DNA of 64,000 nt from Leptospiria bacterium (lineage in GTDB: Bacteria; Spirochaetota; Leptospiria; Turneriellales; CBDBES01). Location of the stretch: the NCBI GenBank assembly GCA_965261485.1, contig CBDHCY010000005.1, forward strand, positions 565,763 to 629,762. The letters are read 5' to 3'. A model generated the notes under the pieces. That model saw nothing but the letters and a program-made list of their open reading frames with translations, had not been told where the DNA came from and did no database searches. The position numbers were made by a program, and so were the translations under genes. This document shows, one piece after another, positions 5,493 to 59,937 of this stretch (its first letter is position 1; each line of letters opens with the position of its first letter).

Positions 5493-5969
5493 ATGAAGTA
5501 TTACAGTAAACCTCCTTCTCAACTAAATAAGCGAGAAGGAGGTAAACCACTGGGGACATCAAAAAAAAAAATATCACATCTTATTCTTTTTATTGATTTA
5601 ATTTTAGTTGTTTTAGTTGCTCTTTATTTTAAAAGTGATATTATAAAAGAAAAAACCTCACATATTGAAAAACAATTTGAATTTTTGGGGTTGAAGATAA
5701 CTTCTTCATGTAAAAAAAAAATTGGTTGTCATATCAATATTGACTCCCCTGATGAGAATAAAAAATTAAATCAAATTGAGTGGAATGTTTTCTCTAACAT
5801 CAAGGAAAATAGGCCAATTTATGAGCTGTCTTTGAAAAATAAAAAAATTAAGAAAGGTGAATTTTACGAGAATACTTTTACTTTTCCTCTCGAGCTTGGT
5901 CAAACCGTCTATATTAGTCTTATTTTAGGCACTCCACCAAAAATATCAAAATTACAGGTATTCCCTTAA
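5493..5969 (+). CDS. Hypothetical single-TM membrane protein
   Basis: 158-aa ORF, basic N-terminus then hydrophobic LILFIDLILVVLVALYF. Confidence 0.6.
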   Translation: MKYYSKPPSQLNKREGGKPLGTSKKKISHLILFIDLILVVLVALYFKSDIIKEKTSHIEKQFEFLGLKITSSCKKKIGCHINIDSPDENKKLNQIEWNVFSNIKENRPIYELSLKNKKIKKGEFYENTFTFPLELGQTVYISLILGTPPKISKLQVFP

Positions 5970-6219: not shown

Positions 6220-7824
6220 ATGATACTGATTAAATTTCTATATTTTATAAGTGTTAGTTTGTTGCTGATTCATTTTACTTTTTCAACTGAGTTGCTCTAC
6301 AGTGTTGAAATTAAAAAGATTACTGAGCACAAAAAAAATAAAATTAAACCACGGAGTAGGGGTGAGAGTACTTATATTCAAATTGGTAGCAATCGCTTGA
6401 GCTTATCAGATGCAATGAAATTAGTCATCTTTAAAAACCTTACCCTGAGAGAAGCTATGTACGACCTTATTCAAGTAGATACAAAACTTTTAAAGTTTCA
6501 GAAAAAATATAAAATAAAATTGGGTTTAGAAGGAAAATTATCATATTCAAAAAAACCAGTATTTGCTCAAATCTTACGCTCTATTCAGGGTGATACCGCG
6601 ACTAAATATGATATTGTAGGTTCAATTAGAAAAAAATTCTCAACAGGTACGGAAATTATAGGAGGAGTAAACAATATAAATTATTATGATGTTAACGATC
6701 AAGCTTTTCAGGGGAGTTCACCAAACCCAGCTTTTTATCGGCACGGTTTTTTTTTACAGATAAAACAGGAGCTTTTAAAAAATTTCCTAGGTCAAACTGA
6801 TCGAGCTAACGAAAAATCTTTAGAAATACGAGCTAGTATAACTAGATCTTCTCTTATTAACCAACTTTCTAATATTTTAGTTCAAACTATAGCAGATTAT
6901 TGGAGTGTAACAGTCTCTAAAAAAGCCTTAGATACCCGTCTTTTGGAACTTTCTTCTACTCAAAAAGTTCGTCAAATTATTATTCGTAATACACGTTTGG
7001 GTATCTCTGAGAAATTTGATGTAAACCGCTATAATTCTCTTTTGGCGGTAGCCAAAAATAAAGTAGCTCAGGCGAGGTATCAATATGAAGAAGTAAAAAG
7101 AATACTCCTTCGACGAGTTGATTTATCCCCAAAAACAAAAATTACAGGTGTAACTGATTTAACAGAAAAGCTCCCTGCAGATATTAAATTGTCAAAGGAT
7201 ATTGAAACTGCCTTCAAAAAAAGGGTCGATTATAAAAATGCAATTTTAGAGATGAAAGCTATTAAACTTGAAAAAGAAGTCAGTTCTAATGCTCTCTTGC
7301 CTTCTTTACTTTTAGATTTTAAAGTAGAGACGGCAAGTCAGGCAGATAGTTTGAAAAATAGCTTTTATCAGGCTCATAATTATGAGTTTCCTAATATTGA
7401 TCTTAAATTAAAAATGAACTACCCTTTATTTGATAGAGAAATGTACGCAAATAGAAGAAACTCTGAACTAAAAATGAAGCAACAAGAAATAGTAATTATG
7501 GAATTAAAAAAAGAATTACGAGATGATGTAATTAGTAAGCATGGAAATCTGATACTTTCGCATAAAGTACTGAAAAATAGTAAAATCGCTCAACGAGAGT
7601 CCGCTATTTATTATGCTGGTCTTTTAAAACGTAGTCGACAGGGAAAATTTAACGCGGAAAATGTAAAAAATGCTTTAGATAGTGTGATCAATTCACGTCT
7701 CCGACTCTTACAAAACTTGGTCAATTATAATCTTGCCTTGCTTCAATATGATTTATCTAAAAATGAAATTTTCGAAAGGTATGACTTAAATATTGAGAAA
7801 TTGTTAAAACAGATGAAATTATAA
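6220..7824 (+). CDS. TolC-family outer membrane efflux protein
   Basis: Signal peptide, LSLSDAMKLVIFKN start motif, LLPSLLLD, MNYPLFD, two helical OEP repeats; immediately upstream of an RND gene. Confidence 0.85.
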   Translation: MILIKFLYFISVSLLLIHFTFSTELLYSVEIKKITEHKKNKIKPRSRGESTYIQIGSNRLSLSDAMKLVIFKNLTLREAMYDLIQVDTKLLKFQKKYKIKLGLEGKLSYSKKPVFAQILRSIQGDTATKYDIVGSIRKKFSTGTEIIGGVNNINYYDVNDQAFQGSSPNPAFYRHGFFLQIKQELLKNFLGQTDRANEKSLEIRASITRSSLINQLSNILVQTIADYWSVTVSKKALDTRLLELSSTQKVRQIIIRNTRLGISEKFDVNRYNSLLAVAKNKVAQARYQYEEVKRILLRRVDLSPKTKITGVTDLTEKLPADIKLSKDIETAFKKRVDYKNAILEMKAIKLEKEVSSNALLPSLLLDFKVETASQADSLKNSFYQAHNYEFPNIDLKLKMNYPLFDREMYANRRNSELKMKQQEIVIMELKKELRDDVISKHGNLILSHKVLKNSKIAQRESAIYYAGLLKRSRQGKFNAENVKNALDSVINSRLRLLQNLVNYNLALLQYDLSKNEIFERYDLNIEKLLKQMKL

Positions 7825-7846: not shown

Positions 7847-10800
7847 ATGAAAAAATTAATTAGTTTTCTTGTTCAAAGAAGTATCTTAGGGAACTTATTC
7901 ACCGTTGGTGTCGTGGTGGCAGGTTTTATTGTTCTTTCAAATATGAAAAGAGAGGCCTTCCCCAATATTAATTTTAATATTATTATAATTGCTACAACCT
8001 ATCCTGGTGCTTCTCCTGAAGAAGTAGAAAAGTTAATCACAACACCTGTTGAAAGAGAAATCAAGTCAATCGATGGAATTAAAAAAAGTGCTTCAACATC
8101 AATTGAAGGGCGTTCTGGTATTGTCGTTACTCTAGAACCTGATCTTGCAAATAAAAATGCTGTAATTCAAGACATTAAAGATGCTGTGGATAGTGCTAAA
8201 ATTAATTTTCCTGAAGATGTTGAAGACCCTATTGTTACAGAGGCAAAGACAAGCAGACAAGGTGTGCTAGAGATTGCTTTAGGTACTCTAAAAAATAAAC
8301 TAAGTGAACTTGAGCTCAGAAAGTATGCTAGCCAACTATCTGATAAAATTGAACTTCTCAAAGATGTTGCAATTGTCAGTAAAAGAGGATATCGGGAAAG
8401 AGAGATTCATGTCGAAATATTCCCTGATAAATTAGAGCGATATAATATTTCAACAGATGAAATATCTACGGCCTTAAAAAATAGAAATCTAAACCTTCCC
8501 GGTGGTAATATAATAGATAAAGGTAAGGAATATGCTATTCGGACAGTCAAAGAATTTCAAAATTTAGATGAAATTAGAAATTTAACAATTAGAGCAAATG
8601 ATCTAGGAGGCACGGTCAAAATTAAAGATATTGCTTTTGTTAAAAATGATTTTGAAAATAAAAAATTAATCGAAAAAGTAGGAGGGAACGAGGCTATTAT
8701 TCTCACCGTTCTCAAAAAAGAAACAGGTGATGCGATTGACCTAGTTGATGATGTTTTTAAAGTTATTAATGATTTTAAAAAAACATCATCTACTGATCTT
8801 CGTATAGAAACATTTAATGATCTTGCCTTCTATGTAAAAAGAAGGTTAAACGTACTTGTAGGAAATATAAGCATTGGTATTATTTTAGTGATTATTTCAC
8901 TTTTCTTCTTTTTGGGTTGGCGGGTGTCTATTATGATTGCCCTGGGAATCCCTTTTTCATTTTCCATTACATTTCTTATTATGAATTATGTTGGAATTAG
9001 TATTAATCTTCTGAGTATGTTTGGTTTGGTCATTGTTTCAGGAATGATTGTTGATGATGCTATCGTTGTCGGTGAAAATATTTATCGTCATATAGAAAAA
9101 GGTCTACCTCCAGTACAAGCGGCTATTGTAGGTGCTCAAGAGATGCTTACTCCGGTTGTTGGAGCCATTAGTACAACGATCATTGCTTTTATGCCTCTTA
9201 TGTTTATGAGTGGTATTATGGGTAAATTTATCTGGATTATCCCTACTGGTGTGATCATCGCTTTAAGTGCTTCATTATTTGAAAGTTTTTTTATTTTGCC
9301 TTCACATATTGCAGATATAAGTAAAGGCGATCCAACTTTACGTAGTAATAAATTAAAAAAACAGTTAAAAAAAGAACAAAGTAAGCTAAATATTCTTTCA
9401 TTAAAAATGAAAAAGTTAGAAATAAAAATTATAAATACACTTAAAATAATTTATCTCCCAGCTCTAAAGAAAGTTCTCAAGCATCGCTATTTAGTTATGA
9501 TGTCTGTTCTTATGCTGTTTCTCATCGCTATTTTTTTTATTGGTAAAATTGGTTTTATCCTTTTTCCAAAACAAGGGATCGAAATACTGATTGTTAAAGC
9601 AGAATCTGCTGCTGGCGTTAGTCTTGATGAAATGAGCTCAAGAATTAAATTGATTGAGAATGCGGTGCTTAATCTTAAAAAAAATGAACTAGATAATTTT
9701 AGTAGCCGTGTGGGCATTCACCAAAAAGACCCCAATGATCCTTTTACTAAAAGGGGAAAAAATTACGCTCAAGTTAATATTTATCTTACTCCTGAGCAAA
9801 ATCGTGTAAGAAATTCAAAAGAAATTATCAGCTACTTGAAAAGAAAGCTTGATGAAAAAAAACCTATTTACTCATTCTATCCGATTTCTGAAAAGAATAA
9901 AAATTCTTACTTGCTTGTTAATAATTCATCTGAAATTCAGTGGATTGATACAGAAAAACCGAGTCAAAATTATCGCCAAGAGAAAGTAAATGAAGATTTT
10001 TTACTTGGAGGAGGGCTTTTGTTAGATGGACAAACATTTTTAGGTTATTCAGGTAAAAATGAGCTTTTTCAATTTGATTTAAAAACTAAAAAAAATATTT
10101 TTTCAAAAAAAGTTTATCTCAAAAAAGGAGATGCTGTTGTTAAATTTTTATATGAACCAAATAAAAATTTAGCTGCTTTTTATACTGAAAAAAATTATCT
10201 CTATCAAATAGATCCTAAAAATGCCCTAAACAAGAAGGTAAAACTTTATTCTAAAAAAATTACATCAATAAACTTTATCAAAGAAGAAAACTTACTTATT
10301 GTGAGTAGCGAAAATGGAGTAGATATATGGGAATATTTACAGGGTAATCTTATACTTAGAGAATCTCTCACGCAAGCTACTAAATATTCTTATACAAATC
10401 AGAAGTTTATACCAAATAAAAAAAGAAACTTAGAAAGAGTTGAAGAGGTGGTGTATAATGCAAAAGAGAGGCTTCTTCTATTGAATACATTTAAAGGAAT
10501 AATTCGTATATATGATGTTGCTCAAAGAAAATTTATTAGATACTATCGACCGTCTAATCAGCCTATCTTTTGGTCGATGATTGATTTTGAAAATTCAGAC
10601 TATATATGGTATTCTATAAAAAATCAACTTCTATGTTTTGATCGAAAAGAAGAGAAAAATATTTATAAAATCAATCTTGTTGGTACGATTCAAAAAGCAT
10701 TAGTAAACGAAAAAAAATCTGAAACATTATTATTCGCCACATTTGGTTCAATTCTCAAAATTAATCATAAAAATTCTACTGTAAAGATACTTAAAAAGGG

Positions 10801-11989
10801 TAAGCAAATTTTTAAAAAATTAGATTATGAACAATTAGGGGGAGGGCCTCCTGTAGGTGCTCCTGTTCAAGTTGAGGTGCGTGGTGACAATTTTGAAACC
10901 TCACTTAAAATTATTGAAAAAATTAAAAATATTTTATATACCATCGATGGTGTATATGATATTAAAGACAATTGGGAGAAAAACAAGGAAGAATTTCATG
11001 TACGTGTTAATGAAGAACGAGCAGCCATTGCAGGAATTAGTATCGCCCAATTAGGTAGAAGCCTACAAACAGCATTTGAGGGAAGTATTGTAACTTCAGT
11101 TAAAAAAGCAGATGAAGAAATTAATATTCGAGTTGTTTTTTCTAAATCTCTTCGAGAAAAACTCTCTTCTTTAAAAAAAGTTAAGATTCGAAATAAATAT
11201 GGCAGTCTTGTACCGATCACAGAGCTCGCCACTTTTGTTAAAAAGTCAGGTGTCCCTTTAATCTCTCACACTAATTTTCGTCGAACAATTTATGTTCAAG
11301 CAAATCTTGATGAAGAAAAAACAAATTCAGTGAATGTGAATACTCAGGTTTTACAACAAATACGTACTCTCGCTAAAAATAATCCAGGGTATGAAATTAT
11401 TACTGGTGGAGAATATGAAGATACACAAGAATCATTAAATGCTTTAGGTTTTTCTGCTCTAATTGCCCTTTTAGGAATTGGAATGATTTTAGTCTTTTTA
11501 TTTGGAAATTTGAGAGCTCCACGCGTGATCATGTCAGCAATTCCATTAGGCTTAATTGGAGTCTCATTTGCTTTCTTTTTCCATCGAATAACTTTTCAGC
11601 CTGAACTAACTTTTAGTTTTTTAGCAACGATGGGTATAGTGGGCCTCTCAGGTGTTGTTGTCAATGATTCAATTGTAATGGTTGATTTCATACAAAAACT
11701 TCGTAATTCTGGTTTAGCTAAAATGGATGCGATTATTGGGGGGTGTTTGTCACGTCTTCGCCCTGTTCTTTTAACAACACTTACAACTACATTTGGATTA
11801 TTGCCCACAGCTTATGGAATTGGTGGTGATGACCCATTTTTAAAACCAATGGCACTTGCCTTATCTTGGGGTTTAGCTTTCGCTTCGTTAATTACTTTAT
11901 TTATAACACCAGTATATTATGCTATCTGGGAAGAAAAAGGCTTAATTTTTCATCAGGTTAAAACAGTGATTCCTGGTATTAAATCTTAG
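7847..11989 (+). CDS. RND (AcrB/AcrD/AcrF family) permease with inserted beta-propeller domain
   Basis: YPGASPEEVE, GMIVDDAIVVGENI (TM4), GVVVNDSIVMVD, RLRPVLLTTLTT; about 315 extra residues (673-987). Confidence 0.93.
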   Translation: MKKLISFLVQRSILGNLFTVGVVVAGFIVLSNMKREAFPNINFNIIIIATTYPGASPEEVEKLITTPVEREIKSIDGIKKSASTSIEGRSGIVVTLEPDLANKNAVIQDIKDAVDSAKINFPEDVEDPIVTEAKTSRQGVLEIALGTLKNKLSELELRKYASQLSDKIELLKDVAIVSKRGYREREIHVEIFPDKLERYNISTDEISTALKNRNLNLPGGNIIDKGKEYAIRTVKEFQNLDEIRNLTIRANDLGGTVKIKDIAFVKNDFENKKLIEKVGGNEAIILTVLKKETGDAIDLVDDVFKVINDFKKTSSTDLRIETFNDLAFYVKRRLNVLVGNISIGIILVIISLFFFLGWRVSIMIALGIPFSFSITFLIMNYVGISINLLSMFGLVIVSGMIVDDAIVVGENIYRHIEKGLPPVQAAIVGAQEMLTPVVGAISTTIIAFMPLMFMSGIMGKFIWIIPTGVIIALSASLFESFFILPSHIADISKGDPTLRSNKLKKQLKKEQSKLNILSLKMKKLEIKIINTLKIIYLPALKKVLKHRYLVMMSVLMLFLIAIFFIGKIGFILFPKQGIEILIVKAESAAGVSLDEMSSRIKLIENAVLNLKKNELDNFSSRVGIHQKDPNDPFTKRGKNYAQVNIYLTPEQNRVRNSKEIISYLKRKLDEKKPIYSFYPISEKNKNSYLLVNNSSEIQWIDTEKPSQNYRQEKVNEDFLLGGGLLLDGQTFLGYSGKNELFQFDLKTKKNIFSKKVYLKKGDAVVKFLYEPNKNLAAFYTEKNYLYQIDPKNALNKKVKLYSKKITSINFIKEENLLIVSSENGVDIWEYLQGNLILRESLTQATKYSYTNQKFIPNKKRNLERVEEVVYNAKERLLLLNTFKGIIRIYDVAQRKFIRYYRPSNQPIFWSMIDFENSDYIWYSIKNQLLCFDRKEEKNIYKINLVGTIQKALVNEKKSETLLFATFGSILKINHKNSTVKILKKGKQIFKKLDYEQLGGGPPVGAPVQVEVRGDNFETSLKIIEKIKNILYTIDGVYDIKDNWEKNKEEFHVRVNEERAAIAGISIAQLGRSLQTAFEGSIVTSVKKADEEINIRVVFSKSLREKLSSLKKVKIRNKYGSLVPITELATFVKKSGVPLISHTNFRRTIYVQANLDEEKTNSVNVNTQVLQQIRTLAKNNPGYEIITGGEYEDTQESLNALGFSALIALLGIGMILVFLFGNLRAPRVIMSAIPLGLIGVSFAFFFHRITFQPELTFSFLATMGIVGLSGVVVNDSIVMVDFIQKLRNSGLAKMDAIIGGCLSRLRPVLLTTLTTTFGLLPTAYGIGGDDPFLKPMALALSWGLAFASLITLFITPVYYAIWEEKGLIFHQVKTVIPGIKS

Positions 11990-12829
11990 TTGATAAAGAT
12001 GAAAAATATGAATAATAAACAAACTTCCAGCAGTAAAAAAATAGTAAGCTCAAAAAAAATAAAAGTAAATCAAAAGATAGAAAATGCATCCATCTCTATA
12101 GAAGAAATTGATAAATTTGAAAATCAAAATCTAAAGATTGATTTAAAAGTTTTAAAAAAACTAGATTATGATGATATTCAAGAAATTTATCAAATTTTTA
12201 ATGATATAGATGATGAAGATTCAAAGGCCATTGTTAGAAAGGCTATGGAAACAATTAAACCACCAGATATTGAAATAGCAAAAATTAGTCATAGAATATG
12301 GACATATTTTTATGAAAAACTTATTTTACGTATTGCATTTTTCATTTGGTTTTTACAATTAAATTTTTTAAAGAATATATTTTCATTTGAAATTTCTTTT
12401 TCTCCTAATTTTGATACTTCTAATATTCCTAGTATTTTTAAAAAGGTCTTATTTTCAAATTCAGGGAGCCATTTGATTTTAGGTGGCATAATCTTTTTAT
12501 TGGGCTTTATTTGTCTTTGGGTAATTTGGAAAATTTGGCTTGCTTATTTAGAATCACGGTACAATAAAAATCATTCAGGTTCAACATTCCTAAGAAGAAA
12601 GGTCGGTTTAATTGTGGTCGACAAAAAAGGAGAGACTATTGGTTGGCTTCGAGTTTTTTTAAGAGGACTATTTAGAATACCTATTGTATCCATGATTATG
12701 ATTATTTCAATGGAATTATCTGATAAGCAACGAGGTTTACACGATAAAGTTTTTGGAACCTACGTTCTTCGGCTTCATAAAGATTTAACTTCCCAAGAAA
12801 TTGCCTTTTTTATTACACAAAATTATTGA
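11990..12829 (+). CDS. RDD family membrane protein
   Basis: RIWTYFYE, GSTFLRRKVGLIVVD, RVFLR, RGLHDKVFGTYV match the RDD pattern; start may be ATG 11999. Confidence 0.75.
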   Translation: MIKMKNMNNKQTSSSKKIVSSKKIKVNQKIENASISIEEIDKFENQNLKIDLKVLKKLDYDDIQEIYQIFNDIDDEDSKAIVRKAMETIKPPDIEIAKISHRIWTYFYEKLILRIAFFIWFLQLNFLKNIFSFEISFSPNFDTSNIPSIFKKVLFSNSGSHLILGGIIFLLGFICLWVIWKIWLAYLESRYNKNHSGSTFLRRKVGLIVVDKKGETIGWLRVFLRGLFRIPIVSMIMIISMELSDKQRGLHDKVFGTYVLRLHKDLTSQEIAFFITQNY

Positions 12830-45231: not shown

Positions 45232-46533
45232 CTATAATGGACAACTACAAGTAGAGATATCTAAGTCGACAGTTGAAGAGGCTGATACTATTATTTCTTT
45301 TTTACAAAGACGAAAAGATTCTGGAAATCCGTCTTTACCACTTTCCACACCAAATTGAGTGTTCATAAGACGGTCTTGAGTGATATAAAGATCATAGCTT
45401 CCAGGTGGTAAATTATTAATTTCCTCTGTACTACTTTGATATTTTGTTGCTGCAAAAGGAAGTTTATCTGTTTTAAATGAAACTCCACTGGGTAACACAG
45501 CAAAATAAGAAAGTCCATGGGTTTCTCCAGGACCTCCAAGACAAACAGTGCCTCTTTTAGTAATCAATAAATTACTTCGCTCGTCATTAAAATATTTTCG
45601 GGTGCTTATTAAGATATTACCTCCTAAACGATAATAGTTTTCAGGTTTTTGTTTTTTATCACCAAAAATCGCCTCTTTGTGATCATCAAAAGTATGATTC
45701 ATTAACCAATCAGAAGGACCTATAAAAACAAGACGTTCCTTTGATTGAGTATCAAACCAAATATGATTCATCATTAAATTTTTTAAAAAAATACGTATTT
45801 CTAGGGTATAAGGTCTTTCACTTGCATCAATGTTGATATTTAAATTTTTATCTATCAGAGGGACAATGCGAGAGTCTTGTTTACTAGTATCATCTTTTAA
45901 AGTGTATTCATAAAAATTTGAAATATTGACTCCTTTGATATTTTTATTATCAAAAAAATTAAGAGGATCTATAATTTTATTTAAAGAATTGTATCTATTG
46001 CTAGGTGAAGTTAGAATATTTCGAAGATAAAAACTTAATGTTTGATAACTCCCTTCTGCGATGTCATCAGTTTTTAGTGTAAGACCTTCTTTAAAAAAAT
46101 TATTTAAATTTTGTATTCCATTTTTTAGCTGACACGTTTTAAGATTTGTACCATCTTCAGCAACGCTACGAGGACAAAGTACCATTCTTTCTCTGAAAAA
46201 AAATGACCAATCACTATCAATTGTTTCACTTGCTTGTTTGTTCAGAGTAGAAAGACCAATATTTGCAAAATCAAAGTAAAAATTAAATTTTTTTATATCA
46301 ATAGGCTGATTTATTGAGGAAGATTGCGAACTTAAAGAATCATTTTGATATATTTCACTCCACTCGTGAGGATTATTGGTTTCGTAGGTTCCTTTTAAAA
46401 TTAATTGCATCCTTGTATTAATTAAATGAGACAGTACAGCTTGATTATCACAGGATGCTACAGATAATCCCCCCAAAAAAATAAAAATAAATATCTTAAA
46501 TTGCTTTAAAATAATATTACCATTAATTAACAT
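45232..46533 (-). CDS. Putative surface lipoprotein, leptospiral type
   Basis: Lipobox SVAS-C, LILKGTY, several Cys; family not established. Confidence 0.55.
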   Translation of the reverse strand: MLINGNIILKQFKIFIFIFLGGLSVASCDNQAVLSHLINTRMQLILKGTYETNNPHEWSEIYQNDSLSSQSSSINQPIDIKKFNFYFDFANIGLSTLNKQASETIDSDWSFFFRERMVLCPRSVAEDGTNLKTCQLKNGIQNLNNFFKEGLTLKTDDIAEGSYQTLSFYLRNILTSPSNRYNSLNKIIDPLNFFDNKNIKGVNISNFYEYTLKDDTSKQDSRIVPLIDKNLNINIDASERPYTLEIRIFLKNLMMNHIWFDTQSKERLVFIGPSDWLMNHTFDDHKEAIFGDKKQKPENYYRLGGNILISTRKYFNDERSNLLITKRGTVCLGGPGETHGLSYFAVLPSGVSFKTDKLPFAATKYQSSTEEINNLPPGSYDLYITQDRLMNTQFGVESGKDGFPESFRLCKKEIIVSASSTVDLDISTCSCPL

Positions 46534-56848: not shown

Positions 56849-57646
56849 ATGGTACGATCTTTATGGACAGGTGCAATGGGTATGATTTCCCAACAATACC
56901 AGATTGATACGATTGCGAATAATTTAGCTAATGTTAATACTACTGGATTTAAAAAAAATAGAGTAGATTTTGAAGATTTAATTTATCAACATCACCAATT
57001 GGCGGGGACACCAGCAACTGCTGTCTCTGAGATACCTACAGGAGTATATGTTGGGCATGGTGTTCGACCGTCGGCAACTCCTAAAGTTTTTGAAATGGGT
57101 TCTTTGCAGTCAACAGGAAGAAAACTTGATTTAGCGATTAGCAATAGTGTTGGTTTTTTCAAAATACAAATGCCTGATGGTAGTTTTTCTTACAGTAGAG
57201 ATGGTTCTTTTAAAATTGATGGTCGTAGACAAGTGCTCACGAGCAACGGCTATTTATTAGAACCTCCCATCATTATACCAGAAGATGGTATAATGGATAG
57301 TCTGACAGTCTCAGAACAGGGGGAGGTTATGGTCTATTTAGGTGATGATCAAAACCCTACAACAATTGGTCAAATAGAATTATATCGTTTCTTAAATCAA
57401 GAAGGCTTGAAATCAATTGGTAAAAATTTATTTAAAGAAACACCTGCTTCGGGTCCTGAAATTCCGGGCACACCCAATTTAGATGGATTGGGGTCCACCT
57501 TACAAGGTTTTTTGGAAATGAGTAATGTTCATTTGGCGAATGAAATGGTAAATATGATTGTCGCCCAAAGAGCCTATGAATCAAACTCAAAGTCAATTCA
57601 AACCTCTGATTCTATGTTGGCGACAGCGATTCAATTAAAGCGATAA
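56849..57646 (+). CDS. flgG: Flagellar distal rod protein
   Basis: ANNLANVNTTGFKK, YSRDGSF, GFLEMSNV, QRAYESNSK. Confidence 0.97.
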   Translation: MVRSLWTGAMGMISQQYQIDTIANNLANVNTTGFKKNRVDFEDLIYQHHQLAGTPATAVSEIPTGVYVGHGVRPSATPKVFEMGSLQSTGRKLDLAISNSVGFFKIQMPDGSFSYSRDGSFKIDGRRQVLTSNGYLLEPPIIIPEDGIMDSLTVSEQGEVMVYLGDDQNPTTIGQIELYRFLNQEGLKSIGKNLFKETPASGPEIPGTPNLDGLGSTLQGFLEMSNVHLANEMVNMIVAQRAYESNSKSIQTSDSMLATAIQLKR

Positions 57647-57659
57647 AATTATTTAGGTA

Positions 57660-58169
57660 ATGACTCTTTTGAGAAGTAAGCAAATTATCATTATCTTACT
57701 TTTGAGTTCCAAAATTGTGACATTTCTTTTTGCATTTGAACCAAAAGGTCAAGTTTTCAAAAAAGTTCCGTTGGAAGCTGTCGAATCTTTTCTAAAAAAA
57801 AAATCAGGAAAAGAATTTGAGATCATTAATGGGGAAGATACGTTAGTTCCCATTAATGCTAATATTGTTTTTGGGCTTAACAAAAAAGATAAAAAAATAT
57901 TTGTTAAGAGTTTTATATTAGGTGGTTCTCAAAAAATTTATCAAACATTTTCATTGAAAAAGAGAAATATCTTCAAAAGAACAAAAGATGTGAGCTTAGG
58001 GAGCTATCTTTCCTTAAGCTTAAATCAAAAACTTATCTCTATTCAATTCGTCGGGCAGGCTCTTCAATCAGGGAATATTGGAGATATTATTCGTGTGAGA
58101 ATTTCTAATTTAGCACGAATTTTTAAGGCTCGTGTCTTATCAAAAAATAGAGGAGCGATTTTATTTTAA
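57660..58169 (+). CDS. flgA: Flagellar P-ring chaperone (short, divergent)
   Basis: C-terminal GQALQSGNIGDIIRVR...ARV; located between flgG and flgH. Confidence 0.7.
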   Translation: MTLLRSKQIIIILLLSSKIVTFLFAFEPKGQVFKKVPLEAVESFLKKKSGKEFEIINGEDTLVPINANIVFGLNKKDKKIFVKSFILGGSQKIYQTFSLKKRNIFKRTKDVSLGSYLSLSLNQKLISIQFVGQALQSGNIGDIIRVRISNLARIFKARVLSKNRGAILF

Positions 58170-58843
58170 TACCATCTTTTAAAATTTATTATATTTTATT
58201 TGTGATTTTAATTGCAAATTTTTTTAACGCTTCATATGCTCAGATTAGTTTATGGAGAGATACAAGTATTTATGACAGCAAGCTGGTTTCTGGTGATGTA
58301 ATAAAAGTAAAAGTTGAAGAAATCTTTCATATTAAAATTGATTCCAAGTGGGATGTAGGTAATAAGACTAAATTAAGTTTATCACCAGATACTAAAATTT
58401 TACCTTTTTTATCACCATCTACACAAAGTAAAAATCGACATCAAAATACTCAAGCCAAATATCGCATGAAAGATACGCTTAACTTCCAATTACAAGCAGT
58501 AATTGGCACACCTAAAAAGGGAAGTAAATTGTATCCTATTCAAGCAAAAAAATCAATTCTAATGAATTCAAAGCCAACCCAAATTACTTTATCAGGTTTG
58601 ATAAACTCAAAGTATGTTAAAAATAATACAATAAAATCAATTCATATTGTTAATTTAAAACTAAATATTCAAACTCAACCATCTTTTAGCCAAGATAATT
58701 CTATTGTGTTAAAATCACCACGTCCCGAAGAAATCATCGATCCTAAAAATCCACCACCAGATAAAGCAAAATTAAGCGAGCAAGAAAAACAACGAATATT
58801 ACTTAAATATATACAAAAAATTGTAGGACAATTAAATCAATAA
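58163..58843 (+). CDS. flgH: Flagellar L-ring protein homolog (start uncertain: ATT 58163 or GTG 58202)
   Basis: SLW...GDVIKVKVEE, QITLSGLI; located between flgA and flgI. Confidence 0.7.
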   Translation: MLIPSFKIYYILFVILIANFFNASYAQISLWRDTSIYDSKLVSGDVIKVKVEEIFHIKIDSKWDVGNKTKLSLSPDTKILPFLSPSTQSKNRHQNTQAKYRMKDTLNFQLQAVIGTPKKGSKLYPIQAKKSILMNSKPTQITLSGLINSKYVKNNTIKSIHIVNLKLNIQTQPSFSQDNSIVLKSPRPEEIIDPKNPPPDKAKLSEQEKQRILLKYIQKIVGQLNQ

Positions 58844-58854
58844 ATCATATTATC

Positions 58855-59937
58855 ATGCATATGAAAAAAATTATTAATCATTATCTTCATCCCTTCATGG
58901 CTATTGTATTAAGTTCGATGTGCTTATCACCAATTTATTCTTTAATTCTGCCCATTAAAAGATTAGTTAAAATTGGCTCGATGAGAGAAAATCAATTAAC
59001 TGGTTACGGACTTGTTGTTGGTCTTCCACAAACAGGTGATACTAGAAATATTCTTACAACTGAAATGTTAAAAAATACATTATCATCTAGAGGAATGAAA
59101 ATAGATGATTCAAAACTTAAGACAAAAAATGTTGCGATAGTAATGGTCATGGCAAAAATTCCTCCCATTGCTTTGCCCGGAAACTTTATCGATATTTGGG
59201 TATCTTCTGTGGGTAATGCAAAATCTTTAAAAAATGGATATCTCCTCCAGACACCTCTTAGTGGGGCAGATGGCAAAATATATGCCGTAGCCCAAGGTAG
59301 TGTTGTATCTTCATCATCTCTAGGAAAAAGTAAAACCCAAAGAGTGAATGTTAGAAGTACTCAAGAGACCACCACTTTCATTTCAAACGGTGCAATCATT
59401 GAGAAAAAAATTACACAGCCTTTAATATCAGTAAAAAATAATAGACAGATAGTGATTTTCAACCTAATTTACTTTGACATCAGTACTGCCAATAATATTA
59501 TTAATGGAATTAATAAATCTTTTATAAATTCTACACGATTGAACAAGGATGGTACGATTATTGTTCAAATACCTGAAACAGAAAATTCAATAAAATTTAT
59601 TTCAAATATTTTAGAAATACCTGTTAAGGTAGAGAGTAAGGCTAAGGTAGTAATTGACCCTCGTAGTGGTACCATTGTAATGGGAGGAAATGTCGGACTT
59701 TCTCCCATTGCAGTGAGTAAGTCTGGAATGAATATTAAGATTGGTAACTCTCAAGATAATCTGGACGAAAAAAATAAAAATAAGAAATCAACTATTTCCT
59801 TTTTAGAAGAAGCCCCTACAATCTCTCAACTTGTAAATATTTTAAATAAACTTGGTGTAGATGCTCATGAAATGATTGATATTTTAAAAGCTATTCATTC
59901 GGCAGGAGCTTTACACGCTGAACTTTTAATTATTTAG
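58855..59937 (+). CDS. flgI: Flagellar P-ring protein
   Basis: RENQLTGYGLVVGL, NVAIVMV, GADGKIYAVAQG, AKVVID.RSGTIVMG, GALHAEL. Confidence 0.95.
   Translation: MHMKKIINHYLHPFMAIVLSSMCLSPIYSLILPIKRLVKIGSMRENQLTGYGLVVGLPQTGDTRNILTTEMLKNTLSSRGMKIDDSKLKTKNVAIVMVMAKIPPIALPGNFIDIWVSSVGNAKSLKNGYLLQTPLSGADGKIYAVAQGSVVSSSSLGKSKTQRVNVRSTQETTTFISNGAIIEKKITQPLISVKNNRQIVIFNLIYFDISTANNIINGINKSFINSTRLNKDGTIIVQIPETENSIKFISNILEIPVKVESKAKVVIDPRSGTIVMGGNVGLSPIAVSKSGMNIKIGNSQDNLDEKNKNKKSTISFLEEAPTISQLVNILNKLGVDAHEMIDILKAIHSAGALHAELLII

Follow-up and report, generated by a model that had tools for sequence, protein, structure and literature searches.

To our knowledge, all well-studied resistance-nodulation-division (RND) pumps in Gram-negative bacteria need a separate adaptor, the membrane fusion protein (MFP), to reach the outer-membrane channel. 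In AcrAB-TolC the MFPs touch the PC1 subdomain of the pump, and in AcrB-type pumps the same subdomain forms one wall of the periplasmic entry cleft. WD40 propellers are platforms for protein interaction, and the periplasmic β-propellers BamB and TolB are docking platforms for envelope machines. For the spirochetes, part of a review describes BesA, the adaptor of the BesABC system of Borrelia burgdorferi, as being devoid of the helical hairpin (PMC8277102). The present analysis concerns one gene in a stretch of 64,000 nucleotides from the genome of a Leptospiria bacterium (contig CBDHCY010000005.1, positions 565,763 to 629,762; the whole stretch is called the window), which encodes an RND transporter with a seven-bladed WD40-type β-propeller inserted into PC1. 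We regard this identity and this architecture as very nearly certain. The protein is a real and intact RND exporter of the proton-motive-force type, it belongs to a subfamily specific for the Spirochaetota, and it is encoded without an MFP.

The transporter and its inserted propeller

The transporter gene (Table 1) is the only one of the AcrB type in its genome, and the other matches are SecD/SecF-like frames. Its product covers the full ACR_tran profile (PF00873): residues 5-675 correspond to profile positions 2-651, and the second half, which was located in a genome-wide profile search, corresponds to positions 654-1019. The closest solved structures are MdtB (9lyq) and MexK, with E-values of about 1e-76; the alignment with MdtB ends at residue 670 of the query, and the alignment with MexK starts at residue 995. 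The cut-offs of two NCBIfam subfamilies were missed (513.5 versus 1250 bits for NF033617 and 326 versus 940 bits for TIGR00915), and we classify the protein as an RND transporter of the AcrB type and not a member of HAE1. An in-frame insert of 315 amino acids (aa) comprises residues 673-987 (nucleotides 9863-10807), and because the profile matches stop at position 651 and resume at position 654, it sits cleanly between two adjacent positions of ACR_tran. The first-pass annotation, which had been made from the sequence alone, had proposed that an RND protein of normal length is left after removal of these residues and that the flanks rejoin; the split of the ACR_tran match and the ends of the MdtB and MexK alignments both agree with this.

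The further proposal that the insert is a seven-bladed β-propeller was borne out by structure prediction and structure comparison. The AlphaFold2 (AF2) model of residues 660-1000, which was run with an alignment of 15 sequences (the window protein and 14 relatives), has a mean predicted local distance difference test (pLDDT) value of 90.6 and a predicted template modeling (pTM) score of 0.88, and it is all-β with 30 strands. The seven strands SEIQWID, ELFQFD, YLYQID, VDIWEY, IIRIYD, LLCFD, and SILKIN coincide with the model strands 37-42, 80-85, 125-129, 165-172, 227-231, 268-273, and 310-314, respectively; in our reading, every one of them is strand three in one of seven predicted four-stranded blades. 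We assign 28 of the 30 strands of this model to the blades (seven times four) and the other two to an additional hairpin, which is located between blades 4 and 5. Foldseek retrieved at least 500 PDB matches with the model of the insert, and among the matches listed they are WD40 propellers throughout. Comparison by VIA-align yielded Z-scores of 21-23 and root-mean-square deviations of 3.4-3.9 Å over 274-290 residues against RACK1, α-COP, β'-COP, Gβ, and LIS1, which we take to be seven-bladed WD40 propellers.

Profile searches led to the same class of proteins. The insert alone passes the cut-off of the Pfam family ANAPC4_WD40 (32.7 versus 22.9 bits), and ten further propeller families of Pfam match it weakly, below their thresholds. 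The single-repeat model PF00400 is not among the Pfam families that match the insert at E ≤0.1; the repeats of this propeller are divergent. Neither an MFP family nor a ligand-binding family is present among the Pfam and NCBIfam matches of the insert. When 1.84 billion representatives were searched with the insert profile, 7450 proteins were obtained at E ≤0.001 and 10 at E ≤1e-30; the top matches are proteins of RND length, in which the matched region is at about residues 650-1000, or parts of such proteins, and from rank 11 onward the matches that were checked are ordinary WD40 proteins, e.g., kinase-WD40 fusions, with E-values of 1e-28 to 1e-14. In the ESM Atlas the insert matched generic bacterial WD40 clusters only, with a recognition below the reliability mark. 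The insert therefore belongs to the WD40 propellers, as a divergent representative of this class. Two relatives carry extra insertions of about 35-145 aa at the hairpin between blades 4 and 5 (L021:1960-6501 in G012, 1513 aa; L020 in G008, 1407 aa), and, as far as these sequences indicate, the hairpin is a second, nested insertion hot spot.

The insertion site was located with an AF2 model of residues 560-1210 (pLDDT 78.1, pTM 0.63), the secondary structure of which was assigned by DSSP. In the model, a β-α-β-β-α unit ends with the helix 657-667 and is followed by the propeller (674-983), by a strand comprising residues 991-997, and by a further strand (1003-1013), which is the first one of PC2. 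As the strand at 991-997 lies between the propeller and PC2, the insert is in the α2-β4 loop inside PC1. The previous assignment to the PC1 subdomain was thus correct, but not the placement at its end, because the last strand of PC1 comes after the propeller.

A similar distinction has to be made for the proton relay, which had been described as intact. This holds true for the Asp pair of transmembrane helix (TM) 4 and the RLRP motif of TM11, but not for the complete relay, since the lysine of TM10 is replaced by Asn-Asp. In the phmmer alignments the TM10 position is Lys-Asn in AdeB-type chains and in MdtB, the lysine being Lys940 in AcrB, and it is Asn1273-Asp1274 here. Therefore, the relay departs from the HAE1 pattern. 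VDDAIV of TM4 and VNDSIV of TM10 form a near-symmetrical pair of motifs, and the TM10 motif is also present in the Leptospira-type homolog.

Table 1. Features of the RND-propeller locus in the window
Feature	Position	Strand	Basis
TolC-like outer membrane efflux protein (OEP), 534 aa, 22 nucleotides upstream of the RND gene	6220..7824	+	Pfam OEP, 42.8 bits versus cut-off 22, two stretches
RND transporter gene, 1380 aa	7847..11989	+	ACR_tran, 622.8 bits
TM4 pair Asp403-Asp404	9053..9058	+	VDDAIV invariant in 15/15 aligned relatives
Inserted seven-bladed WD40-type β-propeller, residues 673-987 (AF2 strands over 674-983)	9863..10807	+	AF2, Foldseek, VIA-align
Additional β-hairpin (residues 843-861), located between blades 4 and 5	10373..10429	+	Model strands 184-189 and 194-202, beyond the 28 blade strands
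Strand at residues 991-997, completes PC1 past the propeller	10817..10837	+	DSSP assignment, AF2 model of residues 560-1210
TM10 Asn1273-Asp1274	11663..11668	+	VVND(S/A)IV invariant in 15/15 relatives
TM11 SRLRP motif, Arg1303 and Arg1305	11750..11764	+	RLR(P/A)V, then LTT, kept in 15/15 relatives
RDD-family inner-membrane protein, 279 aa, start codon directly after the RND stop	11990..12829	+	Pfam RDD (PF06271), 30.6 versus 24.1 bits

Distribution and origin of the propeller form

Of 41 related genomes searched, 17 encode the insert protein. All of them are from the window's order, where they account for 17 of 34 genomes and for 15 of 18 genera; no match was obtained in 14 genomes of the genus g11 or in seven of the sister family f8. 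Complete frames of the propeller form have 1352-1523 aa, and two frames that are cut by contig ends have 591 and 683 aa. In a phylum sample of 301 genomes the insert profile (residues 660-1000) matched three at E ≤1e-8. Two of these (G000 and G007) belong to the window's order, and the third, a partial match to a 756-aa frame of G060, is taken to be a generic WD40 protein. The profile matched none of the 45 genomes of family f8 in this sample, and among the Spirochaetota genomes sampled none outside the window's order has the insertion. A search with the N-terminal half of the transporter listed 120 homologs, the best 25 of which all have 1352-1513 aa and, where named, are annotated as 'efflux RND transporter permease subunit' and stem from metagenome-assembled genomes of Spirochaetia, Leptospirales, or Leptospiraceae. 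The other 95 have 823-1231 aa and identities of about 43-47%, and they include a 1080-aa protein of Leptospira interrogans, for which the names 'export membrane protein' and 'efflux RND transporter permease subunit' are in use. The Leptospirales-like lineage that the first-pass annotation had assumed agrees with the source names of the relatives. One close relative of the window protein, P0003 (1371 aa, about 98-99% identical, on a 17.9-kb contig), has a sequence that departs entirely past about residue 1329 and ends early; its C-terminus looks like that of a frameshifted or misassembled version of the same gene.

An artificial origin of the architecture, i.e., an assembly chimera, the fusion of a gene pair, or a mobile insertion that disrupts the pump, is so improbable that it can be neglected. 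The reading frame is open through both junctions, and the composition shifts only gradually over them, the GC fraction being about 0.30-0.36 on either side and declining to about 0.25-0.28 within the insert, without a sharp step. A contig from a public run covers positions 9400-11300 unbroken and without any difference, although it perhaps represents the source sample and is then not independent. The alignment of orthologs revealed the same insert boundaries in all 14 relatives examined, which were assembled independently, and this conservation across genomes refutes an artifact.

The insert has 19-59% identity to that of the window protein, compared to 50-80% for the core, and it evolves two to three times faster. 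Its length of about 300-350 aa and the seven-blade fold are kept across proteins with cores that are only 50% identical, and no decayed or truncated insert is present among 28 full-length forms. Forms without a propeller have a shorter segment at this site. The f8 homolog of G038 (1080 aa, 45-46% identical), for example, has the TM10 motif as well and a charged linker of about 45 residues in place of the propeller. When 47 proteins were aligned, the insert columns contained 10-54 residues in propeller-less forms and 310-468 residues in propeller forms, and the same loop has about 50 extra residues in the Leptospiraceae homologs and about 11 in others. Propeller-less homologs were detected in 17 of 120 other Spirochaetota genomes sampled, including all 11 of the f8 genomes among them. 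The RND proteins of genus g11 are only 28% identical, and thus this genus has no ortholog.

A tree of the core was calculated with FastTree from 1034 columns after removal of the insert columns, and a distant Cus-like outgroup was used as root. The propeller forms were not recovered as a clade in this rooted tree (support 0.26), and an approximately unbiased (AU) test did not reject their grouping into one clade (p 0.568; LG+G4, quick search). The presence of the propeller requires a minimum of two changes. The results are compatible with a single origin of the propeller, and gain and loss are not distinguishable.

Gene neighborhood and the adaptor question

The neighborhoods of 15 propeller loci, i.e., the window and 14 relatives, were compared with nine propeller-less loci as a control. 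The claim that the propeller replaces the adaptor was not specifically supported by this comparison: an MFP gene is adjacent to the RND gene in none of the 15 propeller loci, but also in none of the nine propeller-less loci. Therefore, encoding without an adjacent adaptor gene is a trait of the subfamily and not a consequence of the propeller. It is the RDD partner, and not the lack of an adjacent adaptor gene, that tracks the propeller. An RDD ortholog is located downstream in all 15 propeller loci (14 were aligned, and the one of L019 was recognized as a 281-aa frame next to that of the near-twin L018), and the fourteen aligned orthologs share 13 invariant positions. RDD is adjacent to none of the nine propeller-less loci, and none of the open reading frames (ORFs) without Pfam family that lie downstream or upstream of the propeller-less homologs in L045, L042, and L044 matches the RDD profile (probability ≤0.7%). 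A metagenomic, propeller-less protein of 1231 aa (P0176) combines ACR_tran (residues 5-1046) with RDD (residues 1075-1219) in a natural fusion. This fusion and the adjacency in 15 of 15 loci support the view that RDD is probably a membrane subunit of these pumps, and the fusion also implies that the N-terminus of RDD is in the cytoplasm. A prediction of a complex between the propeller and residues 85-279 of RDD had a score of 0.00 and gave no answer, so that it argues neither for nor against binding.

The absence of an MFP extends beyond the neighborhood. The genome of the window is 99.5% complete and contains two OEP genes and no match to HlyD_D23 or HlyD_3; TIGR01730 matches only once, at 19.6 bits, and this match falls on the lipoyl domain of an E2 acyltransferase (2-oxoacid dehydrogenase). 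Four further carriers of the propeller (G001, G003, G004, and G010; 93-98% complete) have no TIGR01730 match, while every other genome searched has one, and thus five carrier genomes are without a detectable MFP. OEP genes are present in G001, G004, and G010. In all four carriers with a single MFP, this MFP is CusB-like and part of its own OEP-MFP-RND operon.

The OEP gene is found upstream of the RND gene in nine of the 14 informative propeller loci; it is not found there in L015-L019, and L022 begins at a contig end. Together with the downstream RDD gene and, usually, the upstream OEP gene, the RND gene forms a module. In the control group, OEP is directly upstream in two of nine loci, in the arrangements PadR-OEP-RND (L047) and TetR-OEP-RND (L048). 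A TetR regulator was confirmed at six of the 15 propeller loci; among the nine propeller-less loci, three have a regulator of the TetR or PadR type. No TetR gene was seen beside the operon in the genome of the window; an ORF of 158 aa without family match (5493-5969, + strand) is present upstream of OEP, where relatives have TetR. In L018:5066-7540 (G010) and L019 (G004) the place of OEP directly upstream of the RND-propeller gene is taken by a frame of 813-824 aa, and the frame of L018 belongs to the MMPL family according to Pfam.

Two propeller-less loci have a different kind of neighbor. In L042:3944-9988 (G064) and L043:3734-9783 (G133) the RND gene is directly followed by genes for an exported tetratricopeptide repeat (TPR) protein of 622 or 649 aa and then for a lipoprotein-like protein of 266-273 aa. 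Hydrophobic, signal-like N-termini are clear in three of these four proteins, and two have a lipobox-like Cys. The TPR protein may be a repeat scaffold that is supplied in trans.

A few observations concern the surroundings. The second OEP gene of the window's genome, which is outside the window (L027, G000:C5:116515-120340), lies by genes for an MlaC-family protein, a steroid 5-alpha-reductase-like protein, and a 3-beta-hydroxysteroid dehydrogenase (3-beta-HSD)/epimerase-like protein, which suggests a lipid-trafficking cluster. A scan for promoters and terminators remained at chance level (49 found versus 42.3 expected), and Rfam had no match in the window. The remainder of the window is housekeeping chromosome (QueA, PurA, MutS, MurJ, ArgG, and others) and also contains a weak match to the LIC11270 family of surface proteins (45235-46533, - strand) as well as genes for the flagellar rod and P-ring, FlgG and FlgI (56849-59934, + strand), in keeping with a spirochete related to Leptospira.

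Possible roles of the propeller and known systems

As a tentative explanation, we favor a function of the propeller in protein docking. Transport would follow the ordinary RND cycle with the Asp-Asp of TM4, the Asn-Asp of TM10, and the Arg of TM11, and the propeller would lie outside the substrate path. Each protomer would carry one propeller on the outside of its porter domain as a built-in scaffold for docking, in line with the general use of WD40 domains. The scaffold would keep a periplasmic or outer-membrane partner at the pump, most probably OEP or an exported lipoprotein, and the RDD protein would be an inner-membrane subunit that touches the transmembrane domain. The retention of fold and length together with the fast divergence of the sequence would fit a surface module that coevolves with its partner, and the exported TPR proteins that are encoded in trans beside two propeller-less relatives also point to a scaffold. 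Several observations weigh against such a function. No partner of the propeller was identified, and no strongly conserved patch stands out on its surface. The near-invariant positions Y734, N738, G824, G884, and G946 look like structural turns of WD40 repeats, and conservation is only slightly higher in the loops of the top face than in those of the bottom face (entropies of 1.83 and 2.12 versus 2.31 and 2.42, based on our own labeling of the strands). OEP is not adjacent in five of the 14 informative loci, and a decoration under weak constraint would diverge just as fast. The model of residues 560-1210 (pTM 0.63) does not predict with confidence how the propeller is oriented toward the porter domain, and it is from the topology and from AcrB structures that we infer that the α2-β4 loop faces the outer, adaptor-docking surface.

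That last surface would be used in a stricter sense if the propeller had taken over the job of the missing MFP, with three propellers forming a collar that seals and holds OEP on the docking domain of the RND trimer. We consider this quite improbable. It would explain why MFP genes are lacking beside all 15 propeller genes and why five carriers have no detectable MFP, and it would agree with an insertion into the subdomain that is contacted by the MFPs in AcrAB-TolC. However, the propeller-less homologs are not accompanied by MFP genes either, and L047 and L048 are pairs of OEP and RND that are devoid of both propeller and MFP, so that the subfamily can do without either. The more frequent adjacency of OEP to propeller forms (9/14 versus 2/9) also points to a collar, but this difference is weak, because the relatives are not independent samples. 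A broader picture, in which the RND-propeller protein, RDD, and OEP form a new adaptor-free machine that spans the envelope, with three cis-propellers as a collar for an outer-membrane channel or lipoprotein, with RDD as a dedicated subunit, and with an exported TPR lipoprotein as the scaffold in trans in related lineages, is likewise very doubtful.

The propeller might instead capture cargo, i.e., it might bind a lipid, a lipoprotein, a peptide, or a periplasmic carrier and feed it to the cleft between PC1 and PC2. This is rather unlikely, even though PC1 is a wall of that cleft in AcrB-type pumps and though the insert is basic (isoelectric point >8) in 11 of 15 relatives, with an acidic periplasmic loop 1 in all 15, a pattern that could suit anionic lipids or envelope polymers. 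Four of the 15 inserts are acidic, no ligand-binding family matches the insert of the window protein, and the regulators of the TetR type in six of 15 propeller loci, or of the TetR and PadR types in three of nine others, are typical of small-molecule efflux, for which a capture domain is not needed. We also judge it unlikely that the propeller is an add-on without partner, a tolerated or mildly useful decoration such as a spacer, a shield, or a stabilizer of PC1, at a loop that accepts insertions. The variable length of the same loop in propeller-less forms (some 50 additional residues in Leptospiraceae, about 11 in the remainder) marks an insertion hot spot, the insert changes two to three times faster than the core, and it has itself received nested insertions of up to about 145 aa. 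Evidence against a decoration is that about 300-350 aa and an intact seven-blade fold are retained at 50% core identity and that no decayed or truncated insert was seen among the 28 full-length forms.

The binding target of the propeller would reveal how an RND transporter without adaptor couples to the envelope. The entire spirochete subfamily, including the homologs of Leptospira, is encoded without an adjacent adaptor gene, and in one order the head of the pump has gained a large domain for protein interaction, with an RDD protein as a fixed membrane partner. Knowledge of the target would also place the poorly understood RDD proteins in a functional context for the first time, and it would provide a natural example of how a porter subdomain can receive an inserted domain while the transporter stays intact. 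The statement of the first-pass annotation that no characterized RND transporter has this architecture is in agreement with our literature search, in which no paper was found that describes a propeller or WD40 domain inserted into an RND transporter. A search for the RDD family together with RND transporters retrieved nothing relevant, and the accessible text of the review PMC8277102 contains no mention of 'propeller' or 'WD40'. The proteins are contained in public databases, and precomputed Pfam matches show both domain types side by side. Therefore, the architecture is visible computationally and, as far as the literature was searched, undescribed.

The comparison with known systems starts with the HAE1-like pumps of the AcrB/MdtB/MexK type, which the window protein resembles in the full ACR_tran match, the Asp-Asp of TM4, the Arg of TM11, the TolC-family neighbor, and the TetR regulators of relatives. 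It differs from them by the 315-aa WD40 propeller in PC1, the Asn-Asp of TM10, the absence of an adaptor gene, and the RDD partner in all loci. Of a tripartite system of RND, MFP, and outer membrane factor (OMF), the locus has the OMF gene (OEP, 6220-7824) and lacks the MFP gene. The propeller-less homologs of Leptospira and other Spirochaetota (1036-1130 aa) are about 45% identical in both halves, share the motifs VVNDSIV and GGPPVG, and also have no adjacent MFP gene; in contrast to the window protein, they have 11 to about 50 residues at the insertion site, and RDD is adjacent in none of nine loci. BamB and TolB, the periplasmic propellers that act as docking platforms, are separate proteins and not domains of a transporter. 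In structure, the insert is matched best by WD40 proteins of eukaryotes. BesABC, as presented in part of the review cited above, is another spirochete RND system with a link to the outer-membrane channel that departs from the AcrA model, but it has an adaptor gene and no propeller (PMC8277102). MmpL5 of the MmpS5L5 system, according to the portion of the source that was available, is similarly an exporter of the RND superfamily that has no classical MFP and carries a large, lineage-specific periplasmic insertion, which forms a coiled-coil tube (PMC12501195). This likeness to the insert is one of description only, as MmpL5 is a mycobacterial protein of the MMPL family and its insertion is an α-helical coiled coil (PMC12501195), in contrast to the β-propeller in PC1 of the spirochete transporter.

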